Shown: positions 3,321 to 38,449, numbered from the stretch's first letter. The stretch is 38,485 nucleotides of DNA from a virus (IMGVR_UViG_2911215477_000001:1-38485); one strand, 5' to 3'. The notes: a model not told the origin generated them from the sequence alone. Program-made: numbers and translations.

Positions 3321-3342
3321 ATTATAGTATGTGCATACATAC
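3321..3342 (-). promoter_or_regulatory. Operator-like palindrome 1 plus -10 box
   Basis: GTATGT-gcat-ACATAC at 3327-3342. On the minus strand it is followed immediately by TATAAT (3326-3321). Confidence 0.75.
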
Positions 3343-3344
3343 CA

Positions 3345-4469
3345 TTACAGCGAAATCGTTAGGGGCTTCTCTGGGTAGCGCTTGGCCACCTCCCCCTTCA
3401 GCAGCACGATGTCCACGCCCGTCCTGATCCGCTTAGCGTTCTGGATCGCGGACAGGATCTCCACCGGCTTCGCTTCGCCTGGGTCTTTGTCCTTCGGGAG
3501 CATCGCCACGTAGCACTCAAACCCCATCTTCAGGAGGCTCAGACACGCCTTGGCAGCTGCGAAGGTCGCTTTCGCCTCCCCATCCCAGAGGAAGGTCAGG
3601 CGCTTGACGCCCTTACCCCTGAGCTTGATGAACTGGCCCAGCTGGTCATTCCCTTCGTTGTTGCCCTCGGACAGGTGCATGCCGAAGGTGCCCACGGCCA
3701 GGGTGGTCTCACGCTTGGAGAAGTCCGTGTCCAGGGCGATCTTTGCCCCGATGACGTCAAACGCACCCTCGCAGATGACCACATGGTCTACCCCAGGCAC
3801 GACGTTCCACCCGTTGTAGAGGTAGGAGCCGGTAGACGCGAAGCCAGGCGGGAACAGGTAGCGCTTCTCGTGCTCCCCAGTGCCGTCTCGCCCCTGGAAC
3901 GTGACCAGCTCACCCTCCAGGTCGAAGACCGGGATGATCACGCGCTTGCCGTAGTCCTGCTTCATCTTGCGACCGTCAGGGCTGACGACTTCGAAGGAGC
4001 CCTCTTCACACCAGCGGAGCCCGAAGTATTCAGCCAGGGCTTTATCCACCCCTCGGCGTGCCAGGTATTCGGGAACCTCCTCCATCTCCGCGACAGGCTT
4101 GCTCTCGGGGAGATAGAGGGAATTGAGGTCCGCGATGGTCAGGACTGACGTTCGCTTGGGCCTCCAGCCCTGCTCCTGAGCCAGTTTCCTGAGCGTCAGA
4201 AGCAGCTGGTTGCCAGCTTGGGAGTACAGACCCTTGAGGAAAGTCCATTTGGAGAAGGTCTTCTGGGGGCAACCGCCAGAGAAGCAGTTGCCGACGCCAG
4301 AATCCGCGTTGACGTAGACACGATAGTCGTTCGACCCGCAGAACGGGCATGCCCGGACGTTGAGCTGACGACCTGAACGACCGTAACTGTCACGGTGGGA
4401 CACGCCTTCACGGTCGAGCACCCACTCCATGTCGATCTGGTCGAGCAGTTCTTTTGCCTCCTCCCACAT
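3345..4469 (-). CDS. DNA primase (Zn-finger + TOPRIM)
   Basis: CPFC..NCFSGGC Zn-binding region, TOPRIM ICEGAFD and LWDGE, DKDPGE. Adjacent to the helicase. Confidence 0.88.
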   Translation of the reverse strand: MWEEAKELLDQIDMEWVLDREGVSHRDSYGRSGRQLNVRACPFCGSNDYRVYVNADSGVGNCFSGGCPQKTFSKWTFLKGLYSQAGNQLLLTLRKLAQEQGWRPKRTSVLTIADLNSLYLPESKPVAEMEEVPEYLARRGVDKALAEYFGLRWCEEGSFEVVSPDGRKMKQDYGKRVIIPVFDLEGELVTFQGRDGTGEHEKRYLFPPGFASTGSYLYNGWNVVPGVDHVVICEGAFDVIGAKIALDTDFSKRETTLAVGTFGMHLSEGNNEGNDQLGQFIKLRGKGVKRLTFLWDGEAKATFAAAKACLSLLKMGFECYVAMLPKDKDPGEAKPVEILSAIQNAKRIRTGVDIVLLKGEVAKRYPEKPLTISL

Positions 4470-4474
4470 GACGC

Positions 4475-5824
4475 CTATGCCTCGATTTCGATGATGGACT
4501 CGATCATTCGTGCCTGTTCAAGGTTCGTCTTGACCCGGACGATGAAGTTGCCCTTCTGGTTACGGGACGCGGCGAAGTAGAGCTTTGCCTCGTTGTTTGC
4601 CTTGTCCTCGTCGCTACTGTTGATGGAGATCAGCAAGTCCACAGTTCGGACCTTGTTGATGTCTTCAGCGACGTGCTCCATCTTGCTGACCGTGGACTTG
4701 AAGCCCTCACGGTTGGTCTGGGTCGCAGACAGAAGCGCGCAGTTGAACTCGTAGGAGATGGCACGCAGGTCGATGTAGATCATGCGGCTGTTCTCGCGCA
4801 TCTCCGACGACATCTGATCCGGACGCATCAGGTCGGCGTAGTCCACCACCACCATGTCGTAGTGATTGCCCTTTGCGGCTTCCCGGTGAAGCAGACGACG
4901 GAGGTCGCCAGGGCTGAAGCTGCCCGTGGGGAAGTCGAACAAGGAGAACTTGCCGGCCTTAGCAGACGCTGCCTTTACCTTGTCGCGAACGGCACCCAGA
5001 GCGATCTGGAGATCCTTCATCGCGGTCTTGGCGATGTTCGCGTCCATACGATCCGCGATGATGCGAGCGGCCACTTCCAGCGAGACGTACAAGACGTTGT
5101 AGCCGGCGAGACAGGCATTGACCGCGAACGCGATCAGCGACATGGACTTGCCCGCTTTCGCAGCGCCCATGATCACGCTCAGCTCCTTGCGACCCCATCC
5201 CTTGTTGTAGAGAACACGGTCCAGCTCCTTGAAGCCGGTGGTGATCCCGTCATAGGTGATGCGACCCGCCAGAAGCTCCTTGCGGTATTCCGCACGCCCC
5301 TCGATCGTTTCGAAGAAGTCGATCTTGGAGTTGTCCTGGTTCTCGCCCACCATCAAGGCTTGCTTGATGGCCTTTTCGATGGCCGGGAAGTCCCGCTTAT
5401 CGACCAGCTCTGCAGACTTCAGGATGGCCTCGGTCATCGCAGAGTGACGAGCGAACTCGGCCACGCGGTCGATGGTGAAGTCCTTGTCGTCCAGCTCGAC
5501 TGCGTACAGCTGACGCAGCGCCTGCTTCATGTCCTCAACGAGGTCGCCACGGATGGTCTTGTTCTTGACCGCATCCGTGAAGAGCATCACGAACGCCGTC
5601 TTGGACGGGATCATCTTGTACTTGTTGAAGTAGTCGAGAGCCAGGCTCACGATCTGACCGAGGCTTTCGCTGGTCATGTAGCGCGGCTGGACGAGCCCTT
5701 CGGTGCGCTGGTTGAAGTCCGTGTCGCGAAGCACCCAGGCAGCGATCTGTTCCTGGAAGTTCTCGTCGAACTCATAGGTAACGCCCTCTTCGGTCGCTAC
5801 CACCTCTTCTTCGACCGCCGACAT
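4475..5824 (-). CDS. DnaB/gp41-like SF4 replicative helicase
   Basis: Walker A GAAKAGKS, SLEVA, Walker B VVDYADL, ATQTNR, AEDINK. Confidence 0.92.
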   Translation of the reverse strand: MSAVEEEVVATEEGVTYEFDENFQEQIAAWVLRDTDFNQRTEGLVQPRYMTSESLGQIVSLALDYFNKYKMIPSKTAFVMLFTDAVKNKTIRGDLVEDMKQALRQLYAVELDDKDFTIDRVAEFARHSAMTEAILKSAELVDKRDFPAIEKAIKQALMVGENQDNSKIDFFETIEGRAEYRKELLAGRITYDGITTGFKELDRVLYNKGWGRKELSVIMGAAKAGKSMSLIAFAVNACLAGYNVLYVSLEVAARIIADRMDANIAKTAMKDLQIALGAVRDKVKAASAKAGKFSLFDFPTGSFSPGDLRRLLHREAAKGNHYDMVVVDYADLMRPDQMSSEMRENSRMIYIDLRAISYEFNCALLSATQTNREGFKSTVSKMEHVAEDINKVRTVDLLISINSSDEDKANNEAKLYFAASRNQKGNFIVRVKTNLEQARMIESIIEIEA

Positions 5825-6136
5825 TTAAGCCACCTCGGCAACGGTGATCTCTTCGAGGGCGTGCTTGAACAGCAGGCGCTTGACGGCACCGTTGTTGGTG
5901 GAGATCAGGATGGTGTAGCGATCAACCTCCAGGACGTAGCCGTTCAGGACGACATCAGCGCCCAGCACGAATTCCAGCTCGGTCTCGGACTCGCGCATCT
6001 CCTGCAGCCACTGGTCATGGCTCCAGGGCTTCGGCTGGGGCGGGAGGACGATCTTGGTCGGCGGGGTTACTTCGGGACGGCGGGCCTTGCCGTTCAGGTG
6101 GAGGGTCTTGCGACGGGGAAAGTTGTGATCCTTCAT
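5825..6136 (-). CDS. hfq: Hfq-like (Sm-fold) RNA chaperone with basic, Pro-rich N-terminal extension, 103 aa
   Basis: SHDQWLQEMR..EFVL..VVLNGYVLEVDRYTILI..LLFKHALEEI aligns by eye with the Hfq core (LQDPFLNALR..IYL..IKLQGQIESFDQFVILL..VYKHAISTV). ATG at 6136. Confidence 0.8.
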   Translation of the reverse strand: MKDHNFPRRKTLHLNGKARRPEVTPPTKIVLPPQPKPWSHDQWLQEMRESETELEFVLGADVVLNGYVLEVDRYTILISTNNGAVKRLLFKHALEEITVAEVA

Positions 6137-6153
6137 TCTCTTCTCTACTGCGT

Positions 6154-6177
6154 ATGTATGTCGATACATACATTGTA
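6154..6177 (-). promoter_or_regulatory. Operator-like palindrome 2 plus -10 box (hfq-like promoter)
   Basis: ATGTATGT-cgat-ACATACAT (6154-6173, perfect 8-bp arms, core 6156-6171). On the minus strand TACAAT directly precedes the core. Confidence 0.8.
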
Positions 6178-6189: not shown

Positions 6190-6882
6190 TTACGCGATCA
6201 GTTCAGCGGGAAGCAGCTTCTCGGCAGTCGCTTGGGACAGCACTCCCTGGTCGATCAGACGCAGGGCGACCATCGAGCTGCCCTTGGCACGGATCATCTT
6301 GCAGAGCCATTCGTCGAACGCGCCCTTCCACGGGGCAGTCGAGTCGGCCATGAGGGTCGGGGCGGTGAAGTGCAGCGCTCGGATGGGGAGTTCCTCCTTC
6401 CAGCGCATTGCGATGAAGCCGATCAGGGGCAGGACGCCGGGACGGGCCTTGCCGTAAAGCTGACGGACGTTGGGGAGCCTGCTCCACCCGCGATCCACTG
6501 CCTCGTTGATCCCGAGACGGACGAACGTGTCATAGGGCATCCCGAGAGCGTCAGCGGCCTGTCGTGCCCCGAATGCGTCTTTCATCTGCTGCTCTTTTAT
6601 AAGAGACGTGAACAGCTTCGACACAGCGATAGGGGCGCGATAGATGCCGGTGTACTTCTCCTGCGACTCGACGTAGACCTTGTTGCAGAGCTTCCCAAAC
6701 AAGCGCGTGCGCTTGACGGGGTGCATGCCCCTGTATTCCCACCAGCAGGCTTTCGCAAGCTTGCGCTCGCGCTCACAGATCGCGTCAAAGTCGTTTGGGA
6801 ACGAGCGCATCAGCGCTAGATCCATGTCCCTGGCTTCCATGTCGAAGCCAGGGAACTCGATGGTATGTGTGATGGTCGCCAT
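6190..6882 (-). CDS. Conserved phage hypothetical protein, about 230 aa
   Basis: Long ORF. The WWEYRGMHPVKRTRLF motif recalls a protein of SSU5/pHCM2-like elements (from memory). Start set to MATITH (6882) because the upstream ATG lies in the promoter region. Confidence 0.7.
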   Translation of the reverse strand: MATITHTIEFPGFDMEARDMDLALMRSFPNDFDAICERERKLAKACWWEYRGMHPVKRTRLFGKLCNKVYVESQEKYTGIYRAPIAVSKLFTSLIKEQQMKDAFGARQAADALGMPYDTFVRLGINEAVDRGWSRLPNVRQLYGKARPGVLPLIGFIAMRWKEELPIRALHFTAPTLMADSTAPWKGAFDEWLCKMIRAKGSSMVALRLIDQGVLSQATAEKLLPAELIA

Positions 6883-6884
6883 AG

Positions 6885-6927
6885 TTAGTGCTTTGTCTCT
6901 GAGCACTAATTATATGCGCTCACATAC
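6885..6927 (-). promoter_or_regulatory. Operator-like palindrome 3, TATAAT box and downstream 8-bp hairpin
   Basis: ATATGC-gctc-ACATAC at 6912-6927 overlaps a minus-strand TATAAT. Inverted repeat TTAGTGCT (6885-6892) / AGCACTAA (6902-6909). Confidence 0.7.
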
Positions 6928-7677
6928 TTATTTTGTCGCAGGATCTCGATACCGCCTCAAGATCTCCTTGACCAGGCCCGAGCGCACAACGTCATCCTCG
7001 GTGAACTCGATGACCTTCACGCCCTTGAGACCCTTCAAACGCTCCATGGCGTCCTTCAGGCCGCTTTCGCCAGGGATGTCCTTTTGGGTGATGTCGCCAT
7101 TGATGACCACGGTCGAGTTTTCACCGATGCGGGTCAGGAACAGCTTCATCTGCTCCGGGGTGACGTTCTGGGCTTCGTCCAAGATCACGAAGCAGTTGTC
7201 GAAGGTCAGGCCACGGATGTACTCCAGGGGCTGAATCTCCACCTTTTCGAGGCGCTGGAGGTTCTCCAGATGCCTTGCGCCGAGGACCGAACTCAGGATG
7301 TGCCGGAACGGGGCGAAGTACGGTTCGAACTTCTCGTGGATGGTGCCGGGAAGGAAGCCCAGTCCCTTACCTGCTTCGACTGCCGGACGGGTCACGATGA
7401 TCTTCTGGATCTTCCGCTGAAGCAGCAGGTTCGCAGCGTGCGCGGTGCAGACGTAGGTCTTGCCCGTGCCAGCGGGACCGATGCCGAAGGTCAGCTGATT
7501 GGATTCCATCGAGATGAGATAGTGACCCTGCACCTCATTCTTCGGCACGACTTCCTTGACGTAGCCGTAATCCTCTTCCCCACGGTGACGCTCACTACCC
7601 ACACGCTCCTTGCCAGTGCGTTCCCGGTTCTCACGTTCCATGCGCTCGTTGCGCTTACGTTCTGCTCGGCGTCCCAC
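6928..7677 (-). CDS. phoH: PhoH-family ATPase
   Basis: GPAGTGKT, ITRPAVE, GFLPG, RGLTF, ILDEAQN, GDITQKD. Probable GTG start at 7677 with AAGGA SD. Confidence 0.93.
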   Translation of the reverse strand: MGRRAERKRNERMERENRERTGKERVGSERHRGEEDYGYVKEVVPKNEVQGHYLISMESNQLTFGIGPAGTGKTYVCTAHAANLLLQRKIQKIIVTRPAVEAGKGLGFLPGTIHEKFEPYFAPFRHILSSVLGARHLENLQRLEKVEIQPLEYIRGLTFDNCFVILDEAQNVTPEQMKLFLTRIGENSTVVINGDITQKDIPGESGLKDAMERLKGLKGVKVIEFTEDDVVRSGLVKEILRRYRDPATK

Positions 7678-9188: not shown

Positions 9189-9507
9189 GGGTGTCGTCCT
9201 TCGGCGGATTCCGTGCCTTGGGTTCAGTCACGGGGTATCCGGGCTCCTGTGCCCGGCGCTTGTTGTAGAAATCGACAACGGCGGTGTCAGTCCAGGAGAA
9301 GAAGCCGTCCCTGGCTACATCCTTCCCTGTTTGCTCCTCCTGGACTGACATGGCCGCTTGGGCGTTGTCTGCCGTTTCCTTGCTCACCGCAGCGGACTGC
9401 TGGGACTTCTCAATGGCGTAGCCACGCTCAGTCCAGGTGTGGCCTCCGTAGAAGCACAGACCCGACCAGGCCACGACGAGCAAACCAATGAGAAGTCCCT
9501 GCTTCAT
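9067..9507 (-). CDS. Inner-membrane spanin (Rz-like)
   Basis: N-terminal TM helix (MKQGLLIGLLVVAWSGLCFYGG), then a helical periplasmic domain. ATG overlaps the endolysin TGA (ATGA). Confidence 0.8.
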   Translation of the reverse strand: MKQGLLIGLLVVAWSGLCFYGGHTWTERGYAIEKSQQSAAVSKETADNAQAAMSVQEEQTGKDVARDGFFSWTDTAVVDFYNKRRAQEPGYPVTEPKARNPPKDDTHEPIPALSERSVDQPVFDADELRLWNLGNKRADFSQREIP

Positions 9508-10394
9508 GCTGCTTCCTTGAGTTCCTTGCGTTTCTGCCAAACCACGTAGATCGAGGTGCCGATGCTGACGGCCACCAAGGTCAGAGCGATCACTCGGGTC
9601 CACTGCGTCATGCCGGCAGTGTCCGAGGCGATCTGTTTGATGGCTGCCACCGTGGGAGCGATCTGGCTGTAACCAGCGGTGATCGCGCCTGCGATACCCG
9701 TCACGATGGTCGTGATGGATGCCTTGCCACCCGGCACTTCAGTCACCTTCTGGACGGGTGCCGTGGGCACTTCGTTGGCGGTGTCGATACGGATGGCTTC
9801 CTGGATGACAGGAGCTGCCTTCGGCACTTCGATACCGGGCAGAGTCATCTGCGGAGCCGGCACGGAGATCTTCCCGATGGGAGCGATGTCCTCGACCGGG
9901 AGGCTCCACAGTCGGATTTCCAGGTTGCGACGGTTCACCAGGCCCGGCAGATCTTCCTTCCAGGTCCGAACCTTGCCGTCAGCAAGCTTCTCGGTCTTGG
10001 TGATCTTGACCCACTTGGCCAGCTCAATCGGGACAGCCTTGTAGTCGCCCTGGTTGAGCTTGCGCAGCAGCGTGCTGGACGCGAACTGATCCCAGCCCAC
10101 GTTGAAGGCGAAGGACACCAGTGCGCCGTACTGATGATCGTTCAGATCAACCAGCACCTTGCTGCACACTACGTCGATTGCTTCGTGGAGATCCTGGTCG
10201 AAGATGCGCCAGGCTTCGGCTTCGGTGATGACCAGGCCAGAGCGAACCTCGGGACCGGTGTGGCCGATACCGATAGTCCAGACGCCCTTGCTGTCCTTGT
10301 AAGCCTTGAGGACGGGTTTACCGTCAGTGCCAGGAGCGCCCTCGCACACAGCGAGGAACTTGCGGCACTCTTCAGTCAGTGGACGGAAGTTCAC
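9504..10394 (-). CDS. GH24 (T4/P21-type) endolysin with hydrophobic C-terminal extension, about 296 aa
   Basis: Catalytic E..D-x5-T (CEG..YKDSKGVWTIGIGHT), ALVSFAFNVG, GLVNRR. GTG at 10394 has a GGAGG SD and overlaps the upstream TGA. Confidence 0.9.
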   Translation of the reverse strand: MNFRPLTEECRKFLAVCEGAPGTDGKPVLKAYKDSKGVWTIGIGHTGPEVRSGLVITEAEAWRIFDQDLHEAIDVVCSKVLVDLNDHQYGALVSFAFNVGWDQFASSTLLRKLNQGDYKAVPIELAKWVKITKTEKLADGKVRTWKEDLPGLVNRRNLEIRLWSLPVEDIAPIGKISVPAPQMTLPGIEVPKAAPVIQEAIRIDTANEVPTAPVQKVTEVPGGKASITTIVTGIAGAITAGYSQIAPTVAAIKQIASDTAGMTQWTRVIALTLVAVSIGTSIYVVWQKRKELKEAA

Positions 10395-10729
10395 GGGGAA
10401 CCTCCGCTGAGCTTGGGGATGTTGACGTCCGCTGCCTTGGCAGTCAGATAGATCAGCAGGAGCCAGAGACCGATCTTCGTAGCCCACGCGAATACGTGGC
10501 CCATGAAAGAGTCGGTCAGCTTGTCCATGCGTCGGTGGAACTGTTCCGTGATACGGATCAGTTCGAGAACCTCTTCGGGCTTTCGGTCCCCGAAGTGGCT
10601 GATGAAGCTTTCCCGGACTTCGGATCGGACGACAGACCGAATTGCCTCAAGCAACTCGGCCTGTCGGCCTTTCTCAATGAGTTCCTTCTCACGTCCGGAC
10701 ATTCCATTGTCCAGGTCTTTCTCGCTCAC
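10391..10729 (-). CDS. Putative holin or antiholin (single C-terminal TM helix)
   Basis: 112 aa directly upstream of and coupled to the endolysin. Hydrophobic stretch FAWATKIGLWLLLIYLTA. Confidence 0.55.
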   Translation of the reverse strand: MSEKDLDNGMSGREKELIEKGRQAELLEAIRSVVRSEVRESFISHFGDRKPEEVLELIRITEQFHRRMDKLTDSFMGHVFAWATKIGLWLLLIYLTAKAADVNIPKLSGGSP

Positions 10730-10736: not shown

Positions 10737-10784
10737 TCCCTTGTAGCCAGTGTGTATGTATGCGCTTACGTATTCTACAAGGGA
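10737..10784 (-). promoter_or_regulatory. Lysis-cassette control region: operator-like palindrome 4, -10 TAGAAT and flanking 10-bp inverted repeat
   Basis: GTATGC-gctt-ACGTAT at 10758-10773. Perfect IR TCCCTTGTAG (10737-10746) / CTACAAGGGA (10775-10784). The downstream arm on the mRNA contains the SD of the holin candidate. Confidence 0.75.
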
Positions 10785-10793: not shown

Positions 10794-11030
10794 TTAGCCA
10801 CCCTTGGTGGAGTTGCCCTTGCCGGTCGGCTTCGACTTCAGCTCTTCCAGCTCGCTGGTCAGCTCGGCAATGCGCTGGGCCTGCTCCTGCAGGTTGCCGT
10901 GGATGATCTGCACAGCCTGGCGTGCGGCCTGGACGAACGGACCACGGGCAGCGCCTGCGAGGGTCTGGGTCAGGTCATCGGATGCCTGGGCGAGGAACTG
11001 CACGGCTTCCTGGGTTTCCTGCTTGATCAC
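10794..11030 (-). CDS. Small coiled-coil hypothetical protein, 78 aa
   Basis: GTG start with AAGGA SD, overlaps the upstream stop, heptad-like C-terminus. Confidence 0.65.
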   Translation of the reverse strand: MIKQETQEAVQFLAQASDDLTQTLAGAARGPFVQAARQAVQIIHGNLQEQAQRIAELTSELEELKSKPTGKGNSTKGG

Positions 11031-11497
11031 GGGGTTTCTTCCTTGTTGGTTTCAGTGGTGGGTTCGATGATCGTGACGGTTTCGTCCACGACCGGGGGCG
11101 GTTCTTCCGAGACGTTCGGAGAGTTGGGGTTCAGGGTGCTCTGCAGGGTCTCGCTTGCGAAGCCCTTTTCGTTTGCCAGGCGGTCGAACGCGAGCTTGAA
11201 CATGTTGACGACGCCGGCTCCCGAGATGTGCTCCAGCGGAACACCAGTGACGGGATCGAGGTCTTCGGGCTGGGCAAACAGACGCGGGAGCACTTCCATG
11301 CCATTGACCCAAAGGGTATCGCGACGACCCTGCACGTCCACGTAGGCACCGTCGATGTAGATGTATTCCTGGCACTCGTAGATCAGCTGGATGTTGCCGC
11401 TGACCGGATCCCACTTCATGCGGATCTCCGGGGCGACCATTTCAGCGACGACACCGTTACCCAGCTCCCGGAATCGCTTGTTCACAACATTGGTCAT
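11027..11497 (-). CDS. Hypothetical protein next to the tail-fibre locus, 156 aa
   Basis: AGGA SD and its own TATAAT promoter. The DPVTGVPLEHISGAGVVNMFK motif recalls proteins found after tail fibres in Xanthomonadales phages (from memory). Confidence 0.7.
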   Translation of the reverse strand: MTNVVNKRFRELGNGVVAEMVAPEIRMKWDPVSGNIQLIYECQEYIYIDGAYVDVQGRRDTLWVNGMEVLPRLFAQPEDLDPVTGVPLEHISGAGVVNMFKLAFDRLANEKGFASETLQSTLNPNSPNVSEEPPPVVDETVTIIEPTTETNKEETP

Positions 11498-11524: not shown

Positions 11525-11547
11525 ATTATACGTATGCAGATACTTAC
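11525..11547 (-). promoter_or_regulatory. Operator-like palindrome 5 plus -10 box
   Basis: GTATGC-agat-ACTTAC at 11532-11547. Minus-strand TATAAT at 11530-11525. Confidence 0.7.
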
Positions 11548-11593: not shown

Positions 11594-12100
11594 TTACACC
11601 GTGTTGAAGTAGTTCATGCTGCAACGTGCGGTCACGGTCTGGGACGAGACGCCATCAGAGATGTCGCACGCCACATCCACGTAGCTGCCCCCATTGAGCA
11701 GAGCCGTACACTGCGCGCTCACCTGGTTGGTGTTGCTGCCGGCAGTAGCGCCAGATGCGCCACCACCCCACCCGATCACACGCCAGTTGTAGCTGAAGTT
11801 GCCCGTGCCACCGGATGCGTATGCGGTGGCCAAGGTGCTCATCACGCGGGTCGTCGGCGTGGTCTTGTTGCCGAGGTTGAACGAGACCGTCGAGCCGGTT
11901 GCAGACGCAGTGAACGGGACGTAGTTGGTCGCACCCACGAACTGCGCGAGTTCCAGATACCACGAGTTGTCCGAGACGCCGTAGTTCTGCGAGATGTTCG
12001 GGACGAGACCACCACCACGGGCATACGAAAAGAGGTCGCCAGGGCCTCCGAAGACATTCACTAGATCCTGGAGGCTCGGGTTGGCGGGAACGGTAGCCAT
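11594..12100 (-). CDS. Putative fibre-tip adhesin / receptor-binding protein, 168 aa
   Basis: TAATG-coupled to a fibre that ends in a self-cleaving chaperone. Gly-rich N-terminus (SLQDL..FSYARGGGLVPN) followed by a Thr/Ser-rich beta domain. Confidence 0.6.
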   Translation of the reverse strand: MATVPANPSLQDLVNVFGGPGDLFSYARGGGLVPNISQNYGVSDNSWYLELAQFVGATNYVPFTASATGSTVSFNLGNKTTPTTRVMSTLATAYASGGTGNFSYNWRVIGWGGGASGATAGSNTNQVSAQCTALLNGGSYVDVACDISDGVSSQTVTARCSMNYFNTV

Positions 12101-15100
12101 TACAGGCCACCGTCCGTCAGACGCTTGTCCAACATCTGCACCGCTGCGACGAGGGGAGCCAGCAGCTCGGCCACCGACAGGGTGAGCGTGTCGGGACCAG
12201 CAGGGCCGTCACCGGAGGTCACCATCGTCGGATAGTGGTCCTCCATCTCCTGAGCGAAGAACCCGAACTCCCAGTGGCCGTCCTTGAGGTAGGAACGCGG
12301 GATCAGCTTCTTGATCTTCTCAAGCTCCTGGCGGGGGTTGAGCTTCTCCGCGAAGCGCTTCAAGCGCGCGTCGGAGTTGATCTTGAAGTTCGGCGCATAC
12401 ACCCAGGCGGAACAGTAAGCGTCACCGTTGGATTGAACCTTGAACTCGCCAGCACCGTTATATGGCCCGTTGGGTCGCATATAGATCGTGCCCGCCGTGC
12501 CGTTATTGCCGAGAACAAGGTGGCCCTGGTCGGAGTTGACGTAGCCGTTGCGCGCCTTCAGGGTGTTGCCGCTTGCTTCGCCCCAAATCGTTGCAGAACC
12601 GCGTGCGACGAGATCGCCGCGCATATTGAAGTGGCCGTTACGAACGTCAAACCAATGCGAGTATTCGCCCAAAGGCACAGCCTGTCCGGAAATGGTCGGG
12701 GCAAAGCCGATACCGTTCCACGACTTGATGGCAAGGTTGTTCGCAGTGATAGAGCAGTTGTCACCGTTACCCGGATAGATGCCGTTGCCGCCACCGTTAC
12801 CGTTAAACGTGATCTCCTTCATCATTACGCCGCCGACGTTCTTGTCTAGCGGGGTGATAAGAGCAGACGTCCAGATGGTGCCGCCTGCGGCGAGGGAGGC
12901 GGTAAACCCAGCCTGCTCGTTATAGAAGCTGAACTGTCCGCCCTGCTTGAAGATGTACGAGTTGGCGTTTCCGAAGTAGACAACGCCATCAGTGGCAGTG
13001 CCGTTCCAGCCGGAAGCTCGGAGGGAAGCGTTGTTCGCGATCACCGTGCCATTAACGGTCGTCGTGCCGTCAGGCGCGACCGTGACCCTGGAGATCAGGG
13101 CACCGCGCTTGGCCCCAAAGCTGATGTTGAGCGCACCGCCCACCGAATAGAGGGCGATGTCATTGTCACCATCAGAGATCGCATAGCCGCCGCCGTAGCT
13201 GCCGCCAGCCTGGTATGCCATAGCGCCGACGCCCTGACCAGGGCCACTCCAGACGTGCGTCGAGACAACGGACTTCGTGACCGTAATCTTGTTCTGAGCC
13301 TGGAGCGAAATGTCGGTGCCGTTGATTGCGATGGGCGCGTACTTCGACGCATCCGAGTTGACGGCATCCAGGGACACGCCATCCGTGCCGAAAGGCATGA
13401 AGCGAGAGAGGCCAGTCGTGCCGTTCACCGGCTTGAAGTACACGATGTCGGAGAACGTCGGCCCGACAAGGTTCGCCTTGCTATTCGGGTTGAAGTTGCC
13501 GTCGTGCCACACATTGCGCCACGGACCCCAAGTCGTTGCGTTGGTGCCCTTACGGATTGCCAGGCCATCGCCAAAGCTGAGCTGCGATGCGTAGCCGCCC
13601 GATCCGCCGATGTCCCAACCCATCATGGTCAGAATGTGCGCATAGGTGCCGCCGTTGTTGACGGGCGGGTTATTGACCGACGCAATGCGCTTGAAGCTCG
13701 CGAATACCTGCTTAGCCCCGAAGTCGCCCGGAGCATCCACCACGTCGCGGGTGTCCACCACAGCAATCGAGGTTGCGGATGCAGCGGTGGCGGTCTTGTC
13801 GAGCTTCGTGGTCGGATCGAAGTTGGCACTCGTCCACAGCTTGTTCCAGGTGGCGAACTGCGAGCCATCCGAGGTGCCGCCGACGAAGGAGTCAGAAGAG
13901 CCGGCCTGGATCCACAGACCCGCCCAGCCGCCCGAAACGTCGCGATTGGCGATCTTGTGGAAGTAGCCGTAGTTGTCGTTGGGCGCACCACCTGCAATGC
14001 CGATAGTGCTGCTGTTGCCCATATAGCTGGAGTAGCCCATCGGGAGCGCAGCCCAGGCAGCGGCGGTGTTCGTTACGCCGTCGTAGGTCTGGTTGCCAGT
14101 TTTGCCCAGCTTCGTGGCGAGCAGCGGAAGCAGACCCAGATCATCGGTCACGTCGATGATCGAGACGTCATCAACCGTCAGCGTGCCGACCGTCTGGTTC
14201 GCATTCACGGACAGCTGGAGACCGGTCACGCCCGGCTGCACGGTGTAATCGCCAGTGACCTGAGTCCAGCTCGTCTTGTTGCTGGAGAACGTCGGGGCGA
14301 TCAGCAGACCACCGCCCGAGTCACCCAGGCGCAGCTTGGAGTTGTTGGATGCCCCGTTGTAGTCGGCGCTGGTCTTGTAGTAGCACGAAATGCGGTAGGT
14401 GCGGCCCAGCACAACCGGGATCGTCTGCACCGGCATGCCAAAGCTGACATCACCGCTACCAGGTGCGATCTGAATGGCCGTGCTGCCGCTGCGGGAGTCC
14501 GTCACATAGGTCACACGCCCCTGAGCGCCCGACTGCGTGAGATCCCACAGCTTCTTTTCGAAGTTGCCGTCCGAAACGAGGTTGCGACCAGCCGTGAAGT
14601 TGATCAGGTCCAGCGAACGCTGGAGGTTCGTCACTTCACTGATGGCGTGCGTATGCGCGCTCGGAGTGAACGTGGTCGGCTTGTTCGCCAGGTTCGCCCA
14701 GGTGAAAGCAGCAGAGTCGAGCTTGGACGACTCCAGGGCGGCAACCGAGGTCAGGTTGCGGACATGCCAATCCGTCGCATACCAGATCGAACCGTAGTCC
14801 GGCGAGTTCTGGTTGATCTGGAGGAACGGCAGGATCCAGCGAACCGAGCCATTTGCGGGCACGGTATAGCGACCCACCACCTTCACCCAGCCTGCGCTGA
14901 TGGGCTGGCTCTTGACGTTGGTGTAGGTGTAGGTGCCTGCGCCACCCGGAGCCCACGGGCTGAACTGCGACTGGCGGACGTAGAGATTGAAGGCATTGGT
15001 GCCAGGCGTGCCGACACTCGATGCCACGACAGCCGTCATCTCGATCACATCGCCCGGCTGAACCGGAATGGGATCGAAGTTGGGCGTGTGGTCGCGCACA

Positions 15101-29043: not shown

Positions 29044-29586
29044 TTACGGCGTCGGGAGATCCGGGCCGATGGTGAACAGCACCTTGGTTGCCGGGTCCGG
29101 GTAGCCGTTGAACACGGCATTGAACACGCGCTCGTCGTCCACCTTGTAGGCGAACTTCAGAGCGCCGGCAGTGGCTGCCAGCGGGATCACCAAGTCTTCC
29201 GACTGGTCGGCGTCGTCCAGGCCGATGGGATGCAGAACCAGCTTCTTGGCCTGGTTCAGGAGGTTGATGCCAGTGCCCACCTGCACGAGCGCCTGCTTCT
29301 TGGCAGTCGGACCCGTGCCCTCGGTCACGACGGTCGTGCCGGGCATGATGAGCTTGAGGTTTTCGACCGTGGTCTCGGCCAGCGGGCACGTCACGGAGAT
29401 CTTGCGACCCATGATGTACTCGGAGATCGGCGTGTTGCCGAACTGGTCCACGTTCACGGCATGGGTGTCCGTGGTGACTTCGACGTCCACACCGCCCTTG
29501 GTATAACCCAGGTCAGTGCCATCCAGAGTCACTTTGCACACGCCAATCTTGACGTTCTGAGTGCTGCTAGTGCTAGGCGTTGCCAT
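29044..29586 (-). CDS. Major tail tube protein
   Basis: NVKIGVCKV..DLGYTKGGV..VDQFG..GRKISVTCPLAE siphovirus tube motif, and expected position. Confidence 0.88.
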   Translation of the reverse strand: MATPSTSSTQNVKIGVCKVTLDGTDLGYTKGGVDVEVTTDTHAVNVDQFGNTPISEYIMGRKISVTCPLAETTVENLKLIMPGTTVVTEGTGPTAKKQALVQVGTGINLLNQAKKLVLHPIGLDDADQSEDLVIPLAATAGALKFAYKVDDERVFNAVFNGYPDPATKVLFTIGPDLPTP

Positions 29587-29640: not shown

Positions 29641-29665
29641 CTATGTATCTACATACATACTACCA
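29641..29665 (-). promoter_or_regulatory. Operator-like palindrome 7 plus extended -10 (tail-tube promoter)
   Basis: CTATGT-atct-ACATAC-ATAC at 29641-29660. The minus strand reads TG-G-TAGTAT directly before the core. Confidence 0.75.
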
Positions 29666-32857: not shown

Positions 32858-33766
32858 TTAGACGTTGGTGATGCCCTTCAGGCGAGCCATCGAGCGCGTG
32901 GACTTGAGGGCCAGGCCCACATACCACTTCAGGCGGTAGCGCCAGGCGTCCTTGTTCTGGACGGTGCCGAGAGCTTCCAGGCGGATGCCCGCAGCTTCGC
33001 CACCGTGCAGACCGTGCAGGCCGTCGTCTTCGTTCAGACGCAGCGCGTACACGCTGGTCGTGGCATCGGCGGAACCCTGGGCTTCCGTGCCGATGTAGTC
33101 GTTGACGATGATCGGCATGCCGTTGTGGCACAGCATGGGGCGACCGAAGTTCGGCAGGATCAGCTCGGACGGCGAGGTGCCACCAGCTGCGCGGAGCAGC
33201 GCACGGTATGCGCGGACGGTGCCCGAACGCATCACGAGGCAGTCAGCGCCGTTCGGCACCATGTCCACCAGCTCGTCGAGCATGGAGAGGGTCAGCGCGG
33301 AACCGTTGGCACCCACGACCTGCACCTGGCTCGAACCCAGACCGTTGGAGATCGCGGCGATACCATCGAATTCCTTCGAATGGACCGAGCGGTCGCCGTT
33401 GATGAGGGTCTTCTGGAACTTGGTGCGCAGACCCTTCGCCTTCGCGGCGATCTGCAGGGCCACCTGGTCGTTCACATCGCTCTCGGACGAGGCGAGGAAC
33501 TTGTCGATGTCCACGTCATGCGCCAGGACGCGGAGCGCCGTGGTGACTTCGGTGAACTTCGCAGCACCTTCCGGCACTTCCTCGTTCGGATCCAGGAACT
33601 CGGCTTCGACCACACCGTTCTCACGGTTGTAGACGTAAGCCTTACCATCGGTTCGGGTGAACGGCAGCACGGCGAACAGGTCGTCGCGGTCGATCACCTC
33701 TTCGATCACGCCACGGACGAGATCGTTGTTCGAAAGCTTGTCAGCTTCCACTTTCAGCAACGGCAT
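32858..33766 (-). CDS. Major capsid protein (HK97 fold), 302 aa
   Basis: Follows the scaffold gene, has a strong SD and its own terminator. MPLLKVEADKLSNN..DDLFAVLPF..YVYNRE and RYRLKWY motifs. Confidence 0.92.
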   Translation of the reverse strand: MPLLKVEADKLSNNDLVRGVIEEVIDRDDLFAVLPFTRTDGKAYVYNRENGVVEAEFLDPNEEVPEGAAKFTEVTTALRVLAHDVDIDKFLASSESDVNDQVALQIAAKAKGLRTKFQKTLINGDRSVHSKEFDGIAAISNGLGSSQVQVVGANGSALTLSMLDELVDMVPNGADCLVMRSGTVRAYRALLRAAGGTSPSELILPNFGRPMLCHNGMPIIVNDYIGTEAQGSADATTSVYALRLNEDDGLHGLHGGEAAGIRLEALGTVQNKDAWRYRLKWYVGLALKSTRSMARLKGITNV

Positions 33767-33791: not shown

Positions 33792-33811
33792 GTATGTATG
33801 TGGTTACGTAC
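33792..33811 (-). promoter_or_regulatory. Operator-like palindrome 8 (upstream of the capsid gene)
   Basis: GTAT-GTATGT-ggtt-ACGTAC at 33792-33811. The -10 box is weak here. Confidence 0.7.
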
Positions 33812-33859: not shown

Positions 33860-34678
33860 TTAGAAGCCGCTCGACGGGAGCTTGATGGCACCCGCGTTGA
33901 CGGCAGCTCGGATGCGATCACGGCCCGAGCCCACGTCCACATCAGCCTTGGCACCGTCCTGGTTCTTGGAACCGGAGCCGGCGCGCATCTGCGAGCGGAG
34001 CATGTGGTCACGGTCGGGATCGCCATTGACGATCTTCTCCAGCGCCTTTTCGAATTGCAGCGGCGAACCGTTGCCATCGACCAGGACGGAGCGACCAGCG
34101 GCACCGACCGGCTTGTCATAGCCGACGACGTTGCCGTCCTTCACTTCGAAATGTCCGCCGTACACCGTGCGAGCCTTGGCCGGGGTCAGCGTGAGCTGAT
34201 CGCGGACGAAGGACGAGTCACCGAACGAACGGCCAATCGTCAGCTCGATGATCTGGGCACGCGAGGCTTCCAGTTCCGCCGACATCGAGGTGAGCTTCGT
34301 GCTCGTCTCGTTGGTCAGCGCTTCCAGCGCCTTGTTGTGCTCGTCGATCATCTGGGTCTTGACGCTTTCGAACTCACCGCGCTTTTCAGCTTCGGTGCGT
34401 TGGCGTTCGGCTTCCAGGCGGTCGCTTTCTGCCTTGTCCTTGAGCAGCTGCTTCACTGCCTCGGGATCAATGCCTTCGAACTTCTTCTGGTGTTCGGTCA
34501 GGGACTCTTCCAACTCGCGGATGCGGGTCTTCTTGTCCATGACTTCCTTCAGGAGCTTGGCTTCGGCGTCGGACGGGGTGTTCTTGCCACCCTCATTGCC
34601 CGGACCACCTGCGCCCTTGCCCTGATCTTCCTTACCAGCCTCGTCCATCAGGCGGCGATTGCGAAACTTGTTGAACAT
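33860..34678 (-). CDS. Capsid scaffolding protein
   Basis: Charged coiled-coil protein between portal and capsid genes. ATG at 34678 with AAGGA SD. Confidence 0.82.
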   Translation of the reverse strand: MFNKFRNRRLMDEAGKEDQGKGAGGPGNEGGKNTPSDAEAKLLKEVMDKKTRIRELEESLTEHQKKFEGIDPEAVKQLLKDKAESDRLEAERQRTEAEKRGEFESVKTQMIDEHNKALEALTNETSTKLTSMSAELEASRAQIIELTIGRSFGDSSFVRDQLTLTPAKARTVYGGHFEVKDGNVVGYDKPVGAAGRSVLVDGNGSPLQFEKALEKIVNGDPDRDHMLRSQMRAGSGSKNQDGAKADVDVGSGRDRIRAAVNAGAIKLPSSGF

Positions 34679-34734: not shown

Positions 34735-36336
34735 TTAGTTGTTCCCTGGAGTGGGCTTGCCGCCGCTGTTGTCTTTCGACGAGACGGCACCCTGGTTCGA
34801 ATCCTTCGAACCGTCCTGGGCTGGTGTATGTATGTTCATACCTACACCATTAAGCGAAGTGTAGGCACTGTCGTCCCAGGAATCAATAGCCTTCTGCAAT
34901 TCCTGTTTCTTCTCTTCTGCCAGCATCGGCCAGATCTTCTCCACGATGCCGGTCATCAGTGCGCGACGCACCTCGATGGGAGCTGCGAGCAAACTCATGC
35001 CCTGCGCAATCGCCATGTCGTCGGACAGACCGCGCACGTCGAAGCTCGTGCTGTACTTCACCGTGTTGGTTTCGGGATCGAGCAGGCTGGTCTTCTCGCC
35101 GTTCCAGATGCGCACCAGGGTTTCCATGCGGTTGGAGAACTGCTCCATCGCATTGGCCTTGGCCGAGAGCAGCGCGTTCACACGTTCGAAGTCGTATGCC
35201 TTTGCTACGCCCGAGCTGTTGTCGATGCCGACCGAGTTGTCCTGCTTGGTGCGCTCACCGGCAAGACCGACCGTGTGGTAGATCTCGTTGATGATCTGGC
35301 GGATCGCCGTGATGATCAGGGATGCTTGGCGCGGATCGGGGCTGATGTAGGTGGGGGCTGCGCCGTGCTCACCGTCGAACAGAAGCACCTGGGAAGTGCC
35401 CATCTTCATCAGGTTGCGCTTGGCTTCGTCCTCTTCCTTCGCACTGTCTTCCGGCGACAGACCCACGCCCGGCAGCACACCCTGAGCCGGCATGACGAGC
35501 TGGCTGAAGGTCTGGTCGTTGATGATCTGGTCCAGGCACGACAGGTAGTTCGCGGTGCCACGGTCCATGTAGGCGATGTCTTCGATCAGCCCAGGGTTGT
35601 GGTAGCGAGCGTCCGACTCGACGTGATCGGCCTTGATGACCGGCACGACGCCCAGGTTGTGATCGCCCTTATCGACGAACTCGATCTTGTCCCTGACGGT
35701 CTGCTTGAAGACGAACCACTGGGTCTTGGTCCACAGGCGGAAGCGGGACAGCACGCGGCCCGAGCCCGAGAACGGGTTGTCGTCGTCGCGGTAGACCTCT
35801 TCGATCAGGATCCACTCCAGCTGGCCGAAGTCGTCGTAGCCCATGTCCAGGACATGCTTGGGGGTGACGATGTACGAGTAGAGGCGCACCGCACCATTCT
35901 TCTCGTCGGCAATCGACGCGATCTCGGAGTTGCTGCGCTTGTTGTTGTCCACCACGACCCAGACGCGACCATAGATCGACGTCTTGCGGGCGACCTCGCG
36001 TTCGAACTGGGACAGCGTGAGGCCCGTCAGGGTGGCTCGCTCGCGGAAACGCAGCACCTGGTCGGGGACGTCCGGCTTACGCACGGGTGCCACCTTGAAC
36101 AGATACTTGTTCACCAGGTCCACTACCTCGCGGGTGTGGTTGAAGCGGTAGGCGCGCTCCACACGCTTGGCGTAGGTCGTGTCACCCTCTCGCGTGAAGC
36201 GGAAGATGTTCTTCTTGAACCAGGACCGCTCGCTCTTGTAGGTCTCTTCCAAGAACTCCCAGTGTTCCAGCTTCTCCCGGTAGTCCGGGTGACGGCGCTG
36301 GGTGAGCGCCGCCATTTCCTTTGGCTTGTAAGTCAT
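34735..36336 (-). CDS. Portal protein (SPP1 gp6-like), 533 aa
   Basis: Follows terL. HNLGVVPVI, IAYMDR..NYLS and SGVAKAYDF motifs. Confidence 0.9.
   Translation of the reverse strand: MTYKPKEMAALTQRRHPDYREKLEHWEFLEETYKSERSWFKKNIFRFTREGDTTYAKRVERAYRFNHTREVVDLVNKYLFKVAPVRKPDVPDQVLRFRERATLTGLTLSQFEREVARKTSIYGRVWVVVDNNKRSNSEIASIADEKNGAVRLYSYIVTPKHVLDMGYDDFGQLEWILIEEVYRDDDNPFSGSGRVLSRFRLWTKTQWFVFKQTVRDKIEFVDKGDHNLGVVPVIKADHVESDARYHNPGLIEDIAYMDRGTANYLSCLDQIINDQTFSQLVMPAQGVLPGVGLSPEDSAKEEDEAKRNLMKMGTSQVLLFDGEHGAAPTYISPDPRQASLIITAIRQIINEIYHTVGLAGERTKQDNSVGIDNSSGVAKAYDFERVNALLSAKANAMEQFSNRMETLVRIWNGEKTSLLDPETNTVKYSTSFDVRGLSDDMAIAQGMSLLAAPIEVRRALMTGIVEKIWPMLAEEKKQELQKAIDSWDDSAYTSLNGVGMNIHTPAQDGSKDSNQGAVSSKDNSGGKPTPGNN
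34826..34845 (-). promoter_or_regulatory. Operator-like palindrome 9, embedded in the portal 3' coding sequence
   Basis: GTAT-GTATGT-tcat-ACCTAC at 34826-34845, an AT-rich patch within the portal tail. Confidence 0.65.
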
Positions 36337-36354: not shown

Positions 36355-36374
36355 GTATGTATATGGTTACATAC
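36355..36374 (-). promoter_or_regulatory. Operator-like palindrome 10 (upstream of portal)
   Basis: GTAT-GTATAT-ggtt-ACATAC at 36355-36374, in the 46-nt terL-portal gap. Confidence 0.7.
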
Positions 36375-36382: not shown

Positions 36383-37633
36383 TCAAAAGCTAACACCCAG
36401 GACCGGCGTCTTGCGGGTCGGGAAGTTGTACTCGATGGCGTAGCCGATACCGTCCGCGATGTGCTCCTTGTTGAGCGACTTGTCGATCTCGGTCGTGCCC
36501 TCGCGATACGTCACCTGTTCGAAGGCTTCGATGGTCGCCCTGCACTTCTCGTTGACCTTCAGTCGCACCTGGTTGCTGGCACTGCGGAGCAAGGCGTTCA
36601 CCGAGTTCACGCGGTCCTGCACGAACGGATGCTTCTTGTGATACATGATCCGCTTGAAGCCTCGGCTGCGGAAAATGTCCAGGGCCGATTCACCACGGGC
36701 ATGCGAGCGCGAACCACCTGCCGGGTCAGGGAAGATGGTGATCTGGCTCATGTTGCGCCAGTAGCGCTTCTCCAGCTCGTCGCAGACCTCGGTCACGTTG
36801 GAGTTGAAGAGCACGATCTCATCGACCACCCACAGCTCGCCGTTCGGCTGAGGCTGAAGCACAGCAGCCGACATCGGGGAGATGTTGAAGTCCTGCCCGA
36901 TCCAGATCGGCAGCTTCGGGTTGAATGGGTAGTTGCCCACATGCCGGCTGCGTTCGAACGGGTAGTAGACGCGGCCCGACATGGTTTCGAAGCTCGCCTC
37001 GTACTCCTGACGGAACGTGCGCGGATCCAGGTCGCTGCGTGCCTGCTCGATCTCTCGCATGGGCACGAACGGGGACGCGATGGTCGGGAACTGCCAGCTC
37101 GCCCACTCGGGGTTCTTGCGGTTGCGCTGACGGACGCCCTTGGCGTAGTTCTCGTACAGAAGGTTGTGGGACTTGGGCGTGCCGATGAAGAGCGCCCTGC
37201 CCTCCGTCGTCGCCAGGGTCGGACGGAGCACCTGCTCCCAGACCTCGGTGCGCATATCCTGGTATTCGTCGAGCACCACGAAGTTCAGACCCACACCGCG
37301 CAGGGTGTCAGGTCGGTCGGCACCCTTCAGGGAGATCAGCGCGCCGTTGACCAGGCGCAACTGCAGGAGCGTTTCGTTGTACTTGTCCACCCAATCCGGA
37401 GGCGTGGTCGCCTTCAGATCGTTCCACATGATCTCTCGGGCCATGCCGTAGGTCGGGGCCACATACCAGATCTTGTCGCCGGGATTGGCACGCGCACCTT
37501 CGCGACGAAGCTCGGACAGTGCGAGCGTCGTCTTGCCAAAGCGTCGGCCTGCAACCAGGGTGCGGAAACGCGCAGGATTGCGATACACCTCCATCTGGGC
37601 ACGATGGAGGCGCGTGCGTGCTACCTCGCTCAT
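36383..37633 (-). CDS. terL: Terminase large subunit
   Basis: Walker A AGRRFGKT, Walker B FVVLDEYQD, nuclease GQDFN and HIADGIGY. Confidence 0.95.
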   Translation of the reverse strand: MSEVARTRLHRAQMEVYRNPARFRTLVAGRRFGKTTLALSELRREGARANPGDKIWYVAPTYGMAREIMWNDLKATTPPDWVDKYNETLLQLRLVNGALISLKGADRPDTLRGVGLNFVVLDEYQDMRTEVWEQVLRPTLATTEGRALFIGTPKSHNLLYENYAKGVRQRNRKNPEWASWQFPTIASPFVPMREIEQARSDLDPRTFRQEYEASFETMSGRVYYPFERSRHVGNYPFNPKLPIWIGQDFNISPMSAAVLQPQPNGELWVVDEIVLFNSNVTEVCDELEKRYWRNMSQITIFPDPAGGSRSHARGESALDIFRSRGFKRIMYHKKHPFVQDRVNSVNALLRSASNQVRLKVNEKCRATIEAFEQVTYREGTTEIDKSLNKEHIADGIGYAIEYNFPTRKTPVLGVSF

Positions 37634-38277
37634 TCTGCTTCCTCTTCCTCGGACTCCGTGTCCGGTTCCGGGAAGGACTCAGCTGCGGCTTCGATCTCTT
37701 CGATGGTGGGCGCGGGTGCCTCTTCGTCGGTTTCCTCACCGAACGAGGACGTGCGGTTGCGGAGCGCTGCCTCTTCCTCGGCAGTCATCTCTTCCACGAC
37801 GATCTTGGTCTTCTCGCCCGTGCCGGCGTCCGGGTTGATCTCCAACAGGCAATACAGCTCTTCGCGGGCGAGCTTCAGTGAAGCGACCGATTCGCGCAGG
37901 GCTTTGGCAGTTGCCTGGAGGGACGCAAGCGAATGGCCACCCTCACGGATGACCTTGAACTCGCGACCGAAGGCTTGCAGGAGGTTGAGCTGGATGCCGG
38001 CGAGCTGTTCCTTCGCGTAGATCGAACGGAATGCCATCTTCTCGGCGTATTCGCGCTCCATCGCAGCGATCTTCGCCAGGTTCTCTTCACGAACCTTGTC
38101 CAGCTTCTCGCCGCCCTTGATCTTGGCAGCGGTCATGTGTCGGGAGACGGTTTCGATGCGGATGCCGAACTTTTCAGCCACCTCTTTCTGGGTGTGGCCG
38201 TTGGCATACATCTCTTCGGCCTTCGCCCACTCCTTCGGAGTCAGACGGCGACCGGCGCTTGCAGCTTTTGCACTCAT
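37630..38277 (-). CDS. terS: Terminase small subunit
   Basis: N-terminal HTH (TQKEVAEKFGIRIETVSRH), coiled-coil middle and acidic tail. Overlaps the terL ATG. Confidence 0.85.
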   Translation of the reverse strand: MSAKAASAGRRLTPKEWAKAEEMYANGHTQKEVAEKFGIRIETVSRHMTAAKIKGGEKLDKVREENLAKIAAMEREYAEKMAFRSIYAKEQLAGIQLNLLQAFGREFKVIREGGHSLASLQATAKALRESVASLKLAREELYCLLEINPDAGTGEKTKIVVEEMTAEEEAALRNRTSSFGEETDEEAPAPTIEEIEAAAESFPEPDTESEEEEAE

Positions 38278-38282
38278 TACAA

Positions 38283-38351
38283 CTCCATCCTTGGAGATAT
38301 GAAGACGGGATCTACAGCGCGTCCCATCCTTGGGGGCTGTAGATCCCGTCT
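38283..38351 (-). promoter_or_regulatory. Structured terS leader: two CAAGGATG-loop hairpins, one capping a perfect 16-bp stem
   Basis: AGACGGGATCTACAGC (38303-38318) / GCTGTAGATCCCGTCT (38336-38351) with inner CCCA-AGGA-TGGG. CTCCA-AGGA-TGGAG (38283-38296) covers the SD. Confidence 0.75.
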
Positions 38352-38353
38352 GT

Positions 38354-38437
38354 TAGAAAATCCCGGCTCGGTCCATCGGAGGAGAGAAGAGATGGTCTTT
38401 GGCGACCGCTGCCGGGGTGTCCTTTGTATGTATGTGC
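38354..38437 (-). ncRNA. Candidate leader-derived small RNA of about 85 nt (hairpin plus U-tract, pyrimidine-rich loop)
   Basis: Starts just after TATAAT (38449-38444). Nested stems CCCGGC/GCCGGG, CGGT/ACCG and CCATC/GATGG, loop TCTTCTCTCCTCC, then ATTTTCT. Structure predicted by hand only. Confidence 0.45.
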
Positions 38438-38449
38438 TTACCTATTATA
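38426..38449 (-). promoter_or_regulatory. Operator-like palindrome 11 overlapping TATAAT (head-operon promoter)
   Basis: GTAT-GTATGT-gctt-ACCTAT at 38426-38445. Minus-strand TATAAT at 38449-38444, with GTGAAA 17 bp upstream. Confidence 0.8.

Follow-up and report, generated by a model that had tools for sequence, protein, structure and literature searches.

The locus and its palindrome

The viral stretch IMGVR_UViG_2911215477_000001:1-38485 (38,485 nucleotides, hereafter the window) corresponds to positions 64774-103258 of a 4.99-Mb single-contig genome, has a G+C content of 60% and carries its genes on the minus strand. These encode a primase, a DnaB helicase, a metallophosphoesterase, an endolysin, three tail proteins of 1,300-1,800 amino acids (aa), the major capsid, scaffold and portal proteins and the large terminase. 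Our subject is a palindrome dispersed among these genes, which an earlier note, made from the sequence alone, had described as a distributed operator of the form GTATGT-N4-ACATAC. The window is part of a 103-kb SSU5/RHEph10-type prophage integrated at a tRNA gene: a 22-bp direct repeat at genome positions 64522 and 167656, inside the tRNA gene, bounds 103.1 kb. The attL core lies 230-251 bp to the left of the window, a further copy of the palindrome lies 204-221 bp to the left of the window start, and no tRNA genes were found inside the window. The left prophage end is marked by the first gene of the window:

1-1323, plus strand: tyrosine integrase

The pattern GTATGT-N4-ACATAC was counted in the window exactly and with up to two mismatches, against expectation and 100 shuffles. 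Two copies are exact (3327 and 6156; 0.00 expected), and allowing mismatches gives 16 register matches that collapse to 11 loci (0.24 expected; no shuffle reached 16), one of them, at 10758, being detected only in the 10754 register. All 11 copies listed in the earlier note were thereby recovered, and a scan with a position weight matrix (PWM) found no further sites in the window. The 16-mer itself had to be given up as the unit. The actual site is a palindrome of 18-20 bp with the halves TATGTATGC and GCATACATA, centred 2 bp to either side of the 16-mer centre, and its summed score is the higher of the two (997 vs 917). Because GTAT and ATAC units recur every 4 bp, the register of the 16-mer is ambiguous; the extra GTAT reported on one side of most copies is real, and is accounted for by the shifted register.

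Following the earlier note's suggestion that the whole element and the host chromosome be scanned, an iterated palindromic PWM was run over the genome at thresholds of 14 and 18. The lower threshold returned 39-40 sites in the prophage and three weak ones (scores 14.7-17.3) in the remaining 4.89 Mb; the higher returned 37 in the prophage and none outside. Likewise, the 27 places in the genome that agree with the pattern at 11 or more of 12 positions are all within 64551-167298. The 11 sites of the window are thus part of a set of about 40 spread across 103 kb. The same note held that operators should be enriched upstream of genes genome-wide, and they are: 35 of 39 prophage sites are intergenic, typically 16-60 bp before the next start codon.

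Both arms of the palindrome are held close to consensus, with G at -6 in 39/39, T at -5 in 38/39 and A at -4 in 34/39 prophage sites. Deviations across the 39 sites comprise 93 one-sided, 15 unpaired and three compensatory changes, where 8.9 compensatory changes would be expected were the arms independent. Few compensatory changes together with conservation of both arms indicate a protein site of two-fold symmetry and not an RNA or DNA hairpin, which argues for DNA that is predicted to be bound by a dimer.

Placement on predicted promoters

Each site was oriented by its downstream gene and hexamers matching TATAAT at five or more of six positions were sought. The starts of such strong -10-like hexamers, measured from the palindrome centre, fall at -14 (six sites), -16/-17 (four), +7 (eight), +6 (one) and +9 (one), and 20 of 39 sites are fused to a hexamer at -14/-17 or +7. 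With the hexamer upstream (class A) the palindrome spans approximately -7 to +11 of the promoter; with the hexamer downstream (class B, 'ACATACgTATAAT') it spans approximately -27 to -10. Relative to the predicted start site, the palindrome is therefore centred at about +2.5 (class A) or -18.5 (class B). The sites in the window, with all genes and hexamers on the minus strand, are as follows:

3324-3341: upstream of a 188-aa gene (2717-3283); -10 TATAAT at 3326-3321, downstream of the palindrome, class B
6153-6170: upstream of an Hfq-like gene (5825-6136) and the helicase/primase operon; -10 TACAAT at 6177-6172, upstream of the palindrome, class A
6913-6930: upstream of the gene at 6190-6882; -10 TATAAT at 6914-6909, class B; lowest PWM score in the window, 14.4
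10755-10772: upstream of an open reading frame (ORF) at 10391-10729 and the endolysin gene (9504-10394); -10 TAGAAT at 10777-10772, class A
11529-11546: upstream of the gene at 11027-11497; -10 TATAAT at 11530-11525, class B
17497-17514: between the tail genes for 1820 aa and 1790 aa, 24 bp ahead of 12100-17472; -10 TATACT at 17519-17514, class A
29642-29659: upstream of a 180-aa gene (29044-29586); weak -10 TAGTAT (4/6) at 29662-29657
33793-33810: precedes the major capsid gene (32858-33766) by 26 bp; no clear -10
34827-34844: inside the portal ORF, at its 3' end; the scaffold gene (33860-34678) follows about 150 bp downstream; no clear -10
36356-36373: precedes the portal gene (34735-36336) by about 20 bp; no clear -10
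38427-38444: upstream of a small-terminase-like helix-turn-helix (HTH) gene (37630-38277) and the large terminase gene; -10 TATAAT at 38449-38444 with GTGAAA 17 bp upstream, class A

Ten of the 11 are intergenic, as had been stated, the exception being the site in the portal ORF. The eight minus-strand -10 boxes of the earlier note were all located, TAGTAT being weak, and nothing convincing is found at the copies it placed at 33796, 34830 and 36359. Its ordering also stands: the palindrome precedes the -10 at 3327, 6912 and 11532, and lies on or after it at the other five. That good -35 boxes are mostly absent was borne out by a two-hexamer scan of the window, which returned three promoter-like sites, fewer than in shuffles, with only that at 38472-38444 coinciding cleanly with a palindrome. 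From the placement of the hexamers we infer promoter function at the sites.

Activators bind at about -41.5 or further upstream. Both registers of the palindrome overlap the footprint of RNA polymerase, which fits occlusion and not activation. The earlier note had taken variable spacing to favour a repressor; the repressor stands, but the spacing is not freely variable, falling instead into two discrete registers.

Some further features of the region may be recorded here. The Hfq-like gene downstream of the site at 6153-6170 matches Pfam Hfq with an E-value of 2.8e-8. The sole strong intrinsic terminator in the window (32836-32806, minus strand; a 13-bp stem and a T-run) directly follows the major capsid gene. 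A purine-rich leader, GAGAGAAGAG, stands just before many start codons (e.g. at window positions 3284-3300 and 6137-6150), with 11 of its 15 genome copies in the prophage. A second palindrome, CCATGG-N3-CCATGG, occurs in seven copies at approximately 114617-118575 of the genome, all intergenic and clustered in a low-GC early region; a similar word, CATGG-N5-CCATG, is enriched in the relative G302.

Related phages and their own palindromes

By megablast against a phage collection the tail region has no near relative, and a search with the capsid protein turned up no related prophage among 300 same-family genomes or in genome contigs. Capsid relatives do occur among Xanthomonas phage JGB6, Stenotrophomonas phages, Pseudomonas phage nickie, Rhizobium phages and SSU5-type phage-plasmids, and 27 IMG/VR contigs encode a capsid protein with 49-70% identity. 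Many of these IMG/VR relatives, ranging from 39 to 63% G+C, carry a different dispersed palindrome, AAGTCA-N4-TGACTT. In relatives the palindrome sits on promoters with the consensus TTGACA-N17-TATTGT, in three registers, and in some of them two sites flank the promoter upstream of the capsid gene.

The complete 111.6-kb genome G301 is syntenic with the prophage except for about 25 kb and has 49 sites with the halves TAAGTCACC and GGTGACTTA, against 0.35 in shuffles. Its -10 hexamers start at +7 (11 sites) or -14/-15 (five sites), the same two registers as in the prophage, and in a third layout the right arm of the palindrome overlaps a consensus TTGACA. At the position equivalent to the capsid terminator of the window, G301 has an operator-like site with TAGAAT, followed by a terminator. 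In G304 the word is AGTAAG-N2-CTTACT, present at about 50 sites with its left arm overlapped by TATAGT, and it differs from the prophage site by one core position per arm; Rhizobium phage RHEph10 carries about 25 sites of (AGTC)AGTCAATATTGACT(GACT), the arms of which have a 4-bp periodicity. When the sites of the prophage, G301, G304 and RHEph10 are aligned on their centres, G at -6 and T at -5 are common to all, and position -4 separates the AGTCA group, which has C, from the prophage and G304, which have A.

Among the relatives compared, G305 (closest by the terminase-proximal module, at 50-67% identity) and JGB6 share the most proteins with the prophage, 54 and 48 respectively. No enriched palindrome was detected in either, perhaps because certain lineages have lost the repression system. 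The prophage integrase has no counterpart in any relative compared.

Two further relatives have motifs of other kinds. In G308 (IMG/VR 3300037296_000220) an asymmetric 17-mer, CACACAAACAACTAAGT, occurs 16 times alongside a few CTATGTnACATAG palindromes; about half of its copies immediately precede, at a constant spacing, a TATAAT-like box, often with an extended -10, which gives the 17-mer the look of a promoter element peculiar to the phage or of an asymmetric operator. Salmonella phage SSU5 (NC_018843) is enriched for AAACAAnTTGTTT (about 13 copies) and for TAAGT-N4-ACTTA and TAAGT-N8-ACTTA (eight and five copies). A literature search combining SSU5 or RHEph10 with operator, repressor or palindrome returned nothing relevant.

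A candidate regulator

The earlier note had found no regulator encoded in the window, and indeed the window offers none better than the small-terminase-like HTH protein. Its proposal to look for HTH proteins elsewhere on the contig led to candidates in the prophage outside the window, of which the strongest is P0001. The proteins considered below are:

166609-167019 of the genome (L033:3609-4019), plus strand: P0001, XRE-type protein, 136 aa, 63 kb beyond the window end
165713-166435 of the genome (L033:2713-3435), minus strand: LuxR/GerE-type protein, 240 aa, divergent from P0001
110546-110917 of the genome: P0002, XRE protein, 123 aa, Pfam HTH_26, with a palindrome site on its promoter
161091-161789 of the genome (L032:18091-18789), minus strand: sigma-like ORF missed by the gene caller, with a Sigma70_r2 match of 23.5 bits (cutoff 24)

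P0001 itself has no Pfam match. The profile of its family matches XRE HTH domains (2kpj, E 5e-4, and 434 Cro), and its homologues carry PF01381/PF12844. In an AlphaFold2 (AF2) model with a predicted local distance difference test (pLDDT) score of 88.6, the N-terminal domain is followed by a helical C-terminal domain, and the N-terminal 60 or so residues superpose on 434 Cro, 434 repressor, P22 c2, C.AhdI, SinR and DdrO at 1.5-1.9 Å, with a Foldseek E-value of only about 0.02. The model thus supports a five-helix HTH domain of the Cro/C1 type.

Convergent with P0001 is an xis-like HTH_17 gene (L033:4016-4261, minus strand), and in the circular form of the phage P0001 adjoins this gene, attP and int; by its gene order this looks like a lysogeny module, most of which runs against the direction of the lytic genes. 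The weakest palindrome site of the set follows the TATAAT of P0001's own promoter, suggesting autoregulation, and the xis promoter has a site as well.

Used alone as a query, P0001 found no close relative among viral contigs. Its family has 152 homologues in the databases. Homologues of its family were found in G301 (two copies), G302, G303, G304, G308 and RHEph10, and none was detected in G305, JGB6 or SSU5. The relatives that lack the family are also without any AGTCA- or GTA-type palindrome. In phages with AGTCA (GTC-type) operators the recognition helix reads (K/R/Q)(P/S)N(I/V/M)(I/V)(S/T)M, which is also the predominant type among the 120 database homologues of P0001 listed. In those with GTA-type operators it reads KQANAFVLLK (P0001 of the prophage) or KNSNFLTLLR (G304). 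The recognition helix of the family thus appears to change with the type of operator, which, together with the phyletic pattern of the family, lends P0001 indirect support as the binder. On this evidence we lean, if only slightly, towards P0001 as the protein that binds the palindrome.

The N-terminal domain of the LuxR-type protein has no Pfam match. Phage LuxR-type receptors have been described for other plasmid prophages, and by analogy this protein might serve as a signal input to the switch.

Proposed repression and its alternatives

The reading of the earlier note, an operator for a repressor, gains support from sites that are confined to the prophage, intergenic, symmetric in their arms and placed in registers that overlap RNA polymerase, with the same registers recurring in relatives. 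We consider it probable that the palindrome is the operator of a phage-encoded dimeric HTH repressor, predicted to act as a global silencer. A dimer on the palindrome would cover the promoter from -7 to +11 (class A) or from -27 to -10 (class B), and by covering the core promoter would exclude the host RNA polymerase. The polymerase would be shut out at the promoters of the replication, lysis, head and tail genes, of xis and of the repressor itself, and occlusion at all of these would allow one protein to hold the whole lytic programme off in the lysogen. Were that protein P0001, which is without a peptidase domain, induction would need an antirepressor or some other signal, and not RecA-driven self-cleavage.

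Several observations weigh against this account or parts of it. The -10 boxes come without matching -35 boxes, the window shows no enrichment of full sigma-70-type promoters, and at three of its sites (33793, 34827 and 36356) a -10 could not be recognised. About seven genomes, falling into three classes, underlie the link between helix and operator, and their shared ancestry confounds it; in G308 a P0001 homologue is present, yet the main repeated motif is asymmetric, and SSU5 has palindromes but no detectable P0001 homologue. P0002 and the LuxR/GerE-type protein, both DNA-binding and unique to the prophage, could be the binder instead. Finally, the protein could be a temporal rather than a lysogeny regulator, a role that is conceivable because the relatives include genomes with direct terminal repeats and phages isolated from plaques.

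That the same occlusion is exerted by another binder, be it P0002, the LuxR/GerE-type protein, or both as a CI/Cro-like pair sharing operators, seems to us unlikely. P0002 has its Pfam HTH_26 match and, in its own promoter, an operator fused to TATAAT; LuxR-type dimers classically bind palindromes of 18-20 bp, and an operator lies between the LuxR-type gene and the divergent P0001. Both proteins, like the operator word, are unique to the prophage. Against them, neither has a homologue in G304 or any other relative with the same frame and registers; P0001, by contrast, has such homologues, with a helix that changes with the operator. The missing -35 boxes invite a different view, in which the palindrome replaces the -35 as a positive element, either the site of a phage activator or a part of the promoter read by a sigma-like factor. 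The class B palindrome does take up the -35/spacer region, with constant spacing to TATAAT, the 17-mer of G308 likewise resembles a promoter element in its fixed distance upstream of -10 boxes, and one prophage protein has a weak Sigma70_r2 match and is a homologue of RHEph10 gp045 (annotated 'RNA polymerase sigma factor'). The centres at -18.5 and +2.5 are nevertheless where RNA polymerase itself sits, at odds with the upstream positions of activators, and in relatives the palindromes stand on promoters with a consensus -35, in three registers. Symmetric sites are not what a sigma factor reads, yet here both arms are equally conserved, and the sigma-like gene is conserved in relatives that include the palindrome-less G305 and JGB6; on these two grounds a phage sigma promoter was rejected, and we regard a positive element in general as quite improbable.

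Least credible, and in our judgement very improbable indeed, is a structural or otherwise non-transcriptional role: a hairpin or processing site in the 5' leader, a centromere-operator of the ParB/KorB type, or a host box such as LexA. The palindrome could fold as an A/U-rich hairpin of 6-9 bp near ribosome-binding sites, but the arms show no compensatory changes of the kind a stem would maintain, and class B sites, lying upstream of the -10, are not transcribed from their own promoter; a hairpin was rejected on both counts. Two ParB-like genes adjoin the terminase in the phage, and KorB of plasmid RK2, a global repressor of the ParB family, acts through dispersed palindromic operators. Here, though, G305 and JGB6 lack palindromes but have the ParB/ABC/GNAT proteins at 47-67% identity, and G301, whose operator word differs, has them at 46-56%; the module is conserved whatever the presence or wording of the palindrome, and this mismatch in phyletic pattern led us to reject an operator of the ParB/KorB type. 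A host regulator would have sites on the chromosome, and there is no strong site outside the prophage: all 37 of the 37 sites above a PWM score of 18 lie within it. LexA and any other host regulon were rejected accordingly, in line with the earlier note, which had not recognised the motif as a known LexA box.

Implications for a large phage group

If a phage repressor does act on these sites, the interest lies chiefly in a design that is common to, and has diversified across, a large and little-studied phage group. The design recurs, spelled with other operator words, in Rhizobium phages that have been cultured and in many phage genomes of 100-115 kb that have not. We put forward, with slightly more doubt than confidence, the broader proposal that SSU5/RHEph10-related phages and phage-plasmids of 100-115 kb share a hitherto undescribed system of whole-genome control. 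In it, an XRE family would gate every transcription unit, head and tail included, via operators fused to the -10 hexamer at the two conserved registers, -14 and +7; at least three specificities (GTC, GTA-T and GTA-A cores) would have arisen as helix and operator diverged together; and the repressor-less lineages, G305 and JGB6, would have lost all operators. Gene regulation in this widespread group, including the SSU5-type enterobacterial phage-plasmids, is essentially unstudied.

Were the repressor reading of the prophage right, one protein and about 40 operators in 103 kb would make up one of the largest phage repressor regulons, acting directly on late structural operons. Were the broader proposal true, the lineages would provide a natural set of orthogonal repressor/operator pairs; and the operators would mark temperate as opposed to virulent lifestyles in the SSU5/RHEph10 group. 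The operator map is a ready list of transcription units and of testable repressor/operator pairings, and a sequence signature by which to tell repressor-bearing from repressor-lost lineages.

Comparison with known systems

The earlier note had named the C1 operators of phage P1 and the stoperators of mycobacteriophages as precedents. The logic is indeed alike, more loosely so for the stoperators, but their defining features, asymmetric sites and unrelated proteins, are not shared. As in P1, one repressor would serve many operators over a temperate phage of about 100 kb, each operator on the promoter of a separate operon; the P1 repressor is autoregulated and without a RecA-cleavable domain, as is proposed here, and relatives of the prophage are phage-plasmids. 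P1 operators, however, are asymmetric 17-mers of the ATTGCTCTAATAAATTT type and C1 is not an XRE HTH protein, in contrast to the symmetric 18-mer of the prophage and a candidate binder with a 434-Cro-like fold. The late genes of P1 are reached through the activator Lpa, whereas here the head and tail operons carry sites directly, within a set of about 40. The likeness thus appears functional only, and not homologous, although no search for C1 homologues as such was made. The stoperators of mycobacteriophage cluster A (L5 gp71) similarly number dozens of sites throughout the prophage, structural genes included. They are 13-bp asymmetric sites, oriented with transcription, that block elongation inside operons, unlike the palindromes described here, 35 of 39 of which lie between genes, with a strong -10 fused to 20 of the 39. 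KorB of RK2 offers a palindromic operator repeated over a mobile element and the coordination of many operons, but its action extends over several distances, some above 1 kb, and it is a ParB-family protein, whereas the ParB-like proteins of this phage family do not follow the presence or wording of the palindrome.

The closest resemblance is to the lambdoid CI/Cro, 434 and P22 c2 repressors. The N-terminal domain of the candidate regulator is modelled in the same fold; the operators are likewise palindromic, with half-sites approximately one helical turn apart, and overlap the -10 or -35; and those repressors are autoregulated and encoded next to int and xis, as P0001 would be. Lambdoid phages differ in having six operators in two clusters and in controlling their late genes by antitermination, and the C-terminal domain of P0001 is helical, as in SinR, DdrO and Stl, and not an S24 peptidase. 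Taken together, the modelled fold and the symmetry of the operator suggest that the system belongs with the XRE/Cro-C1 repressors. Its logic is familiar, and our literature search found no description of it for SSU5- or RHEph10-type phages; what is unusual is the number of operators, about 40 and including those of late operons, and their conserved fusion to the -10 hexamer.

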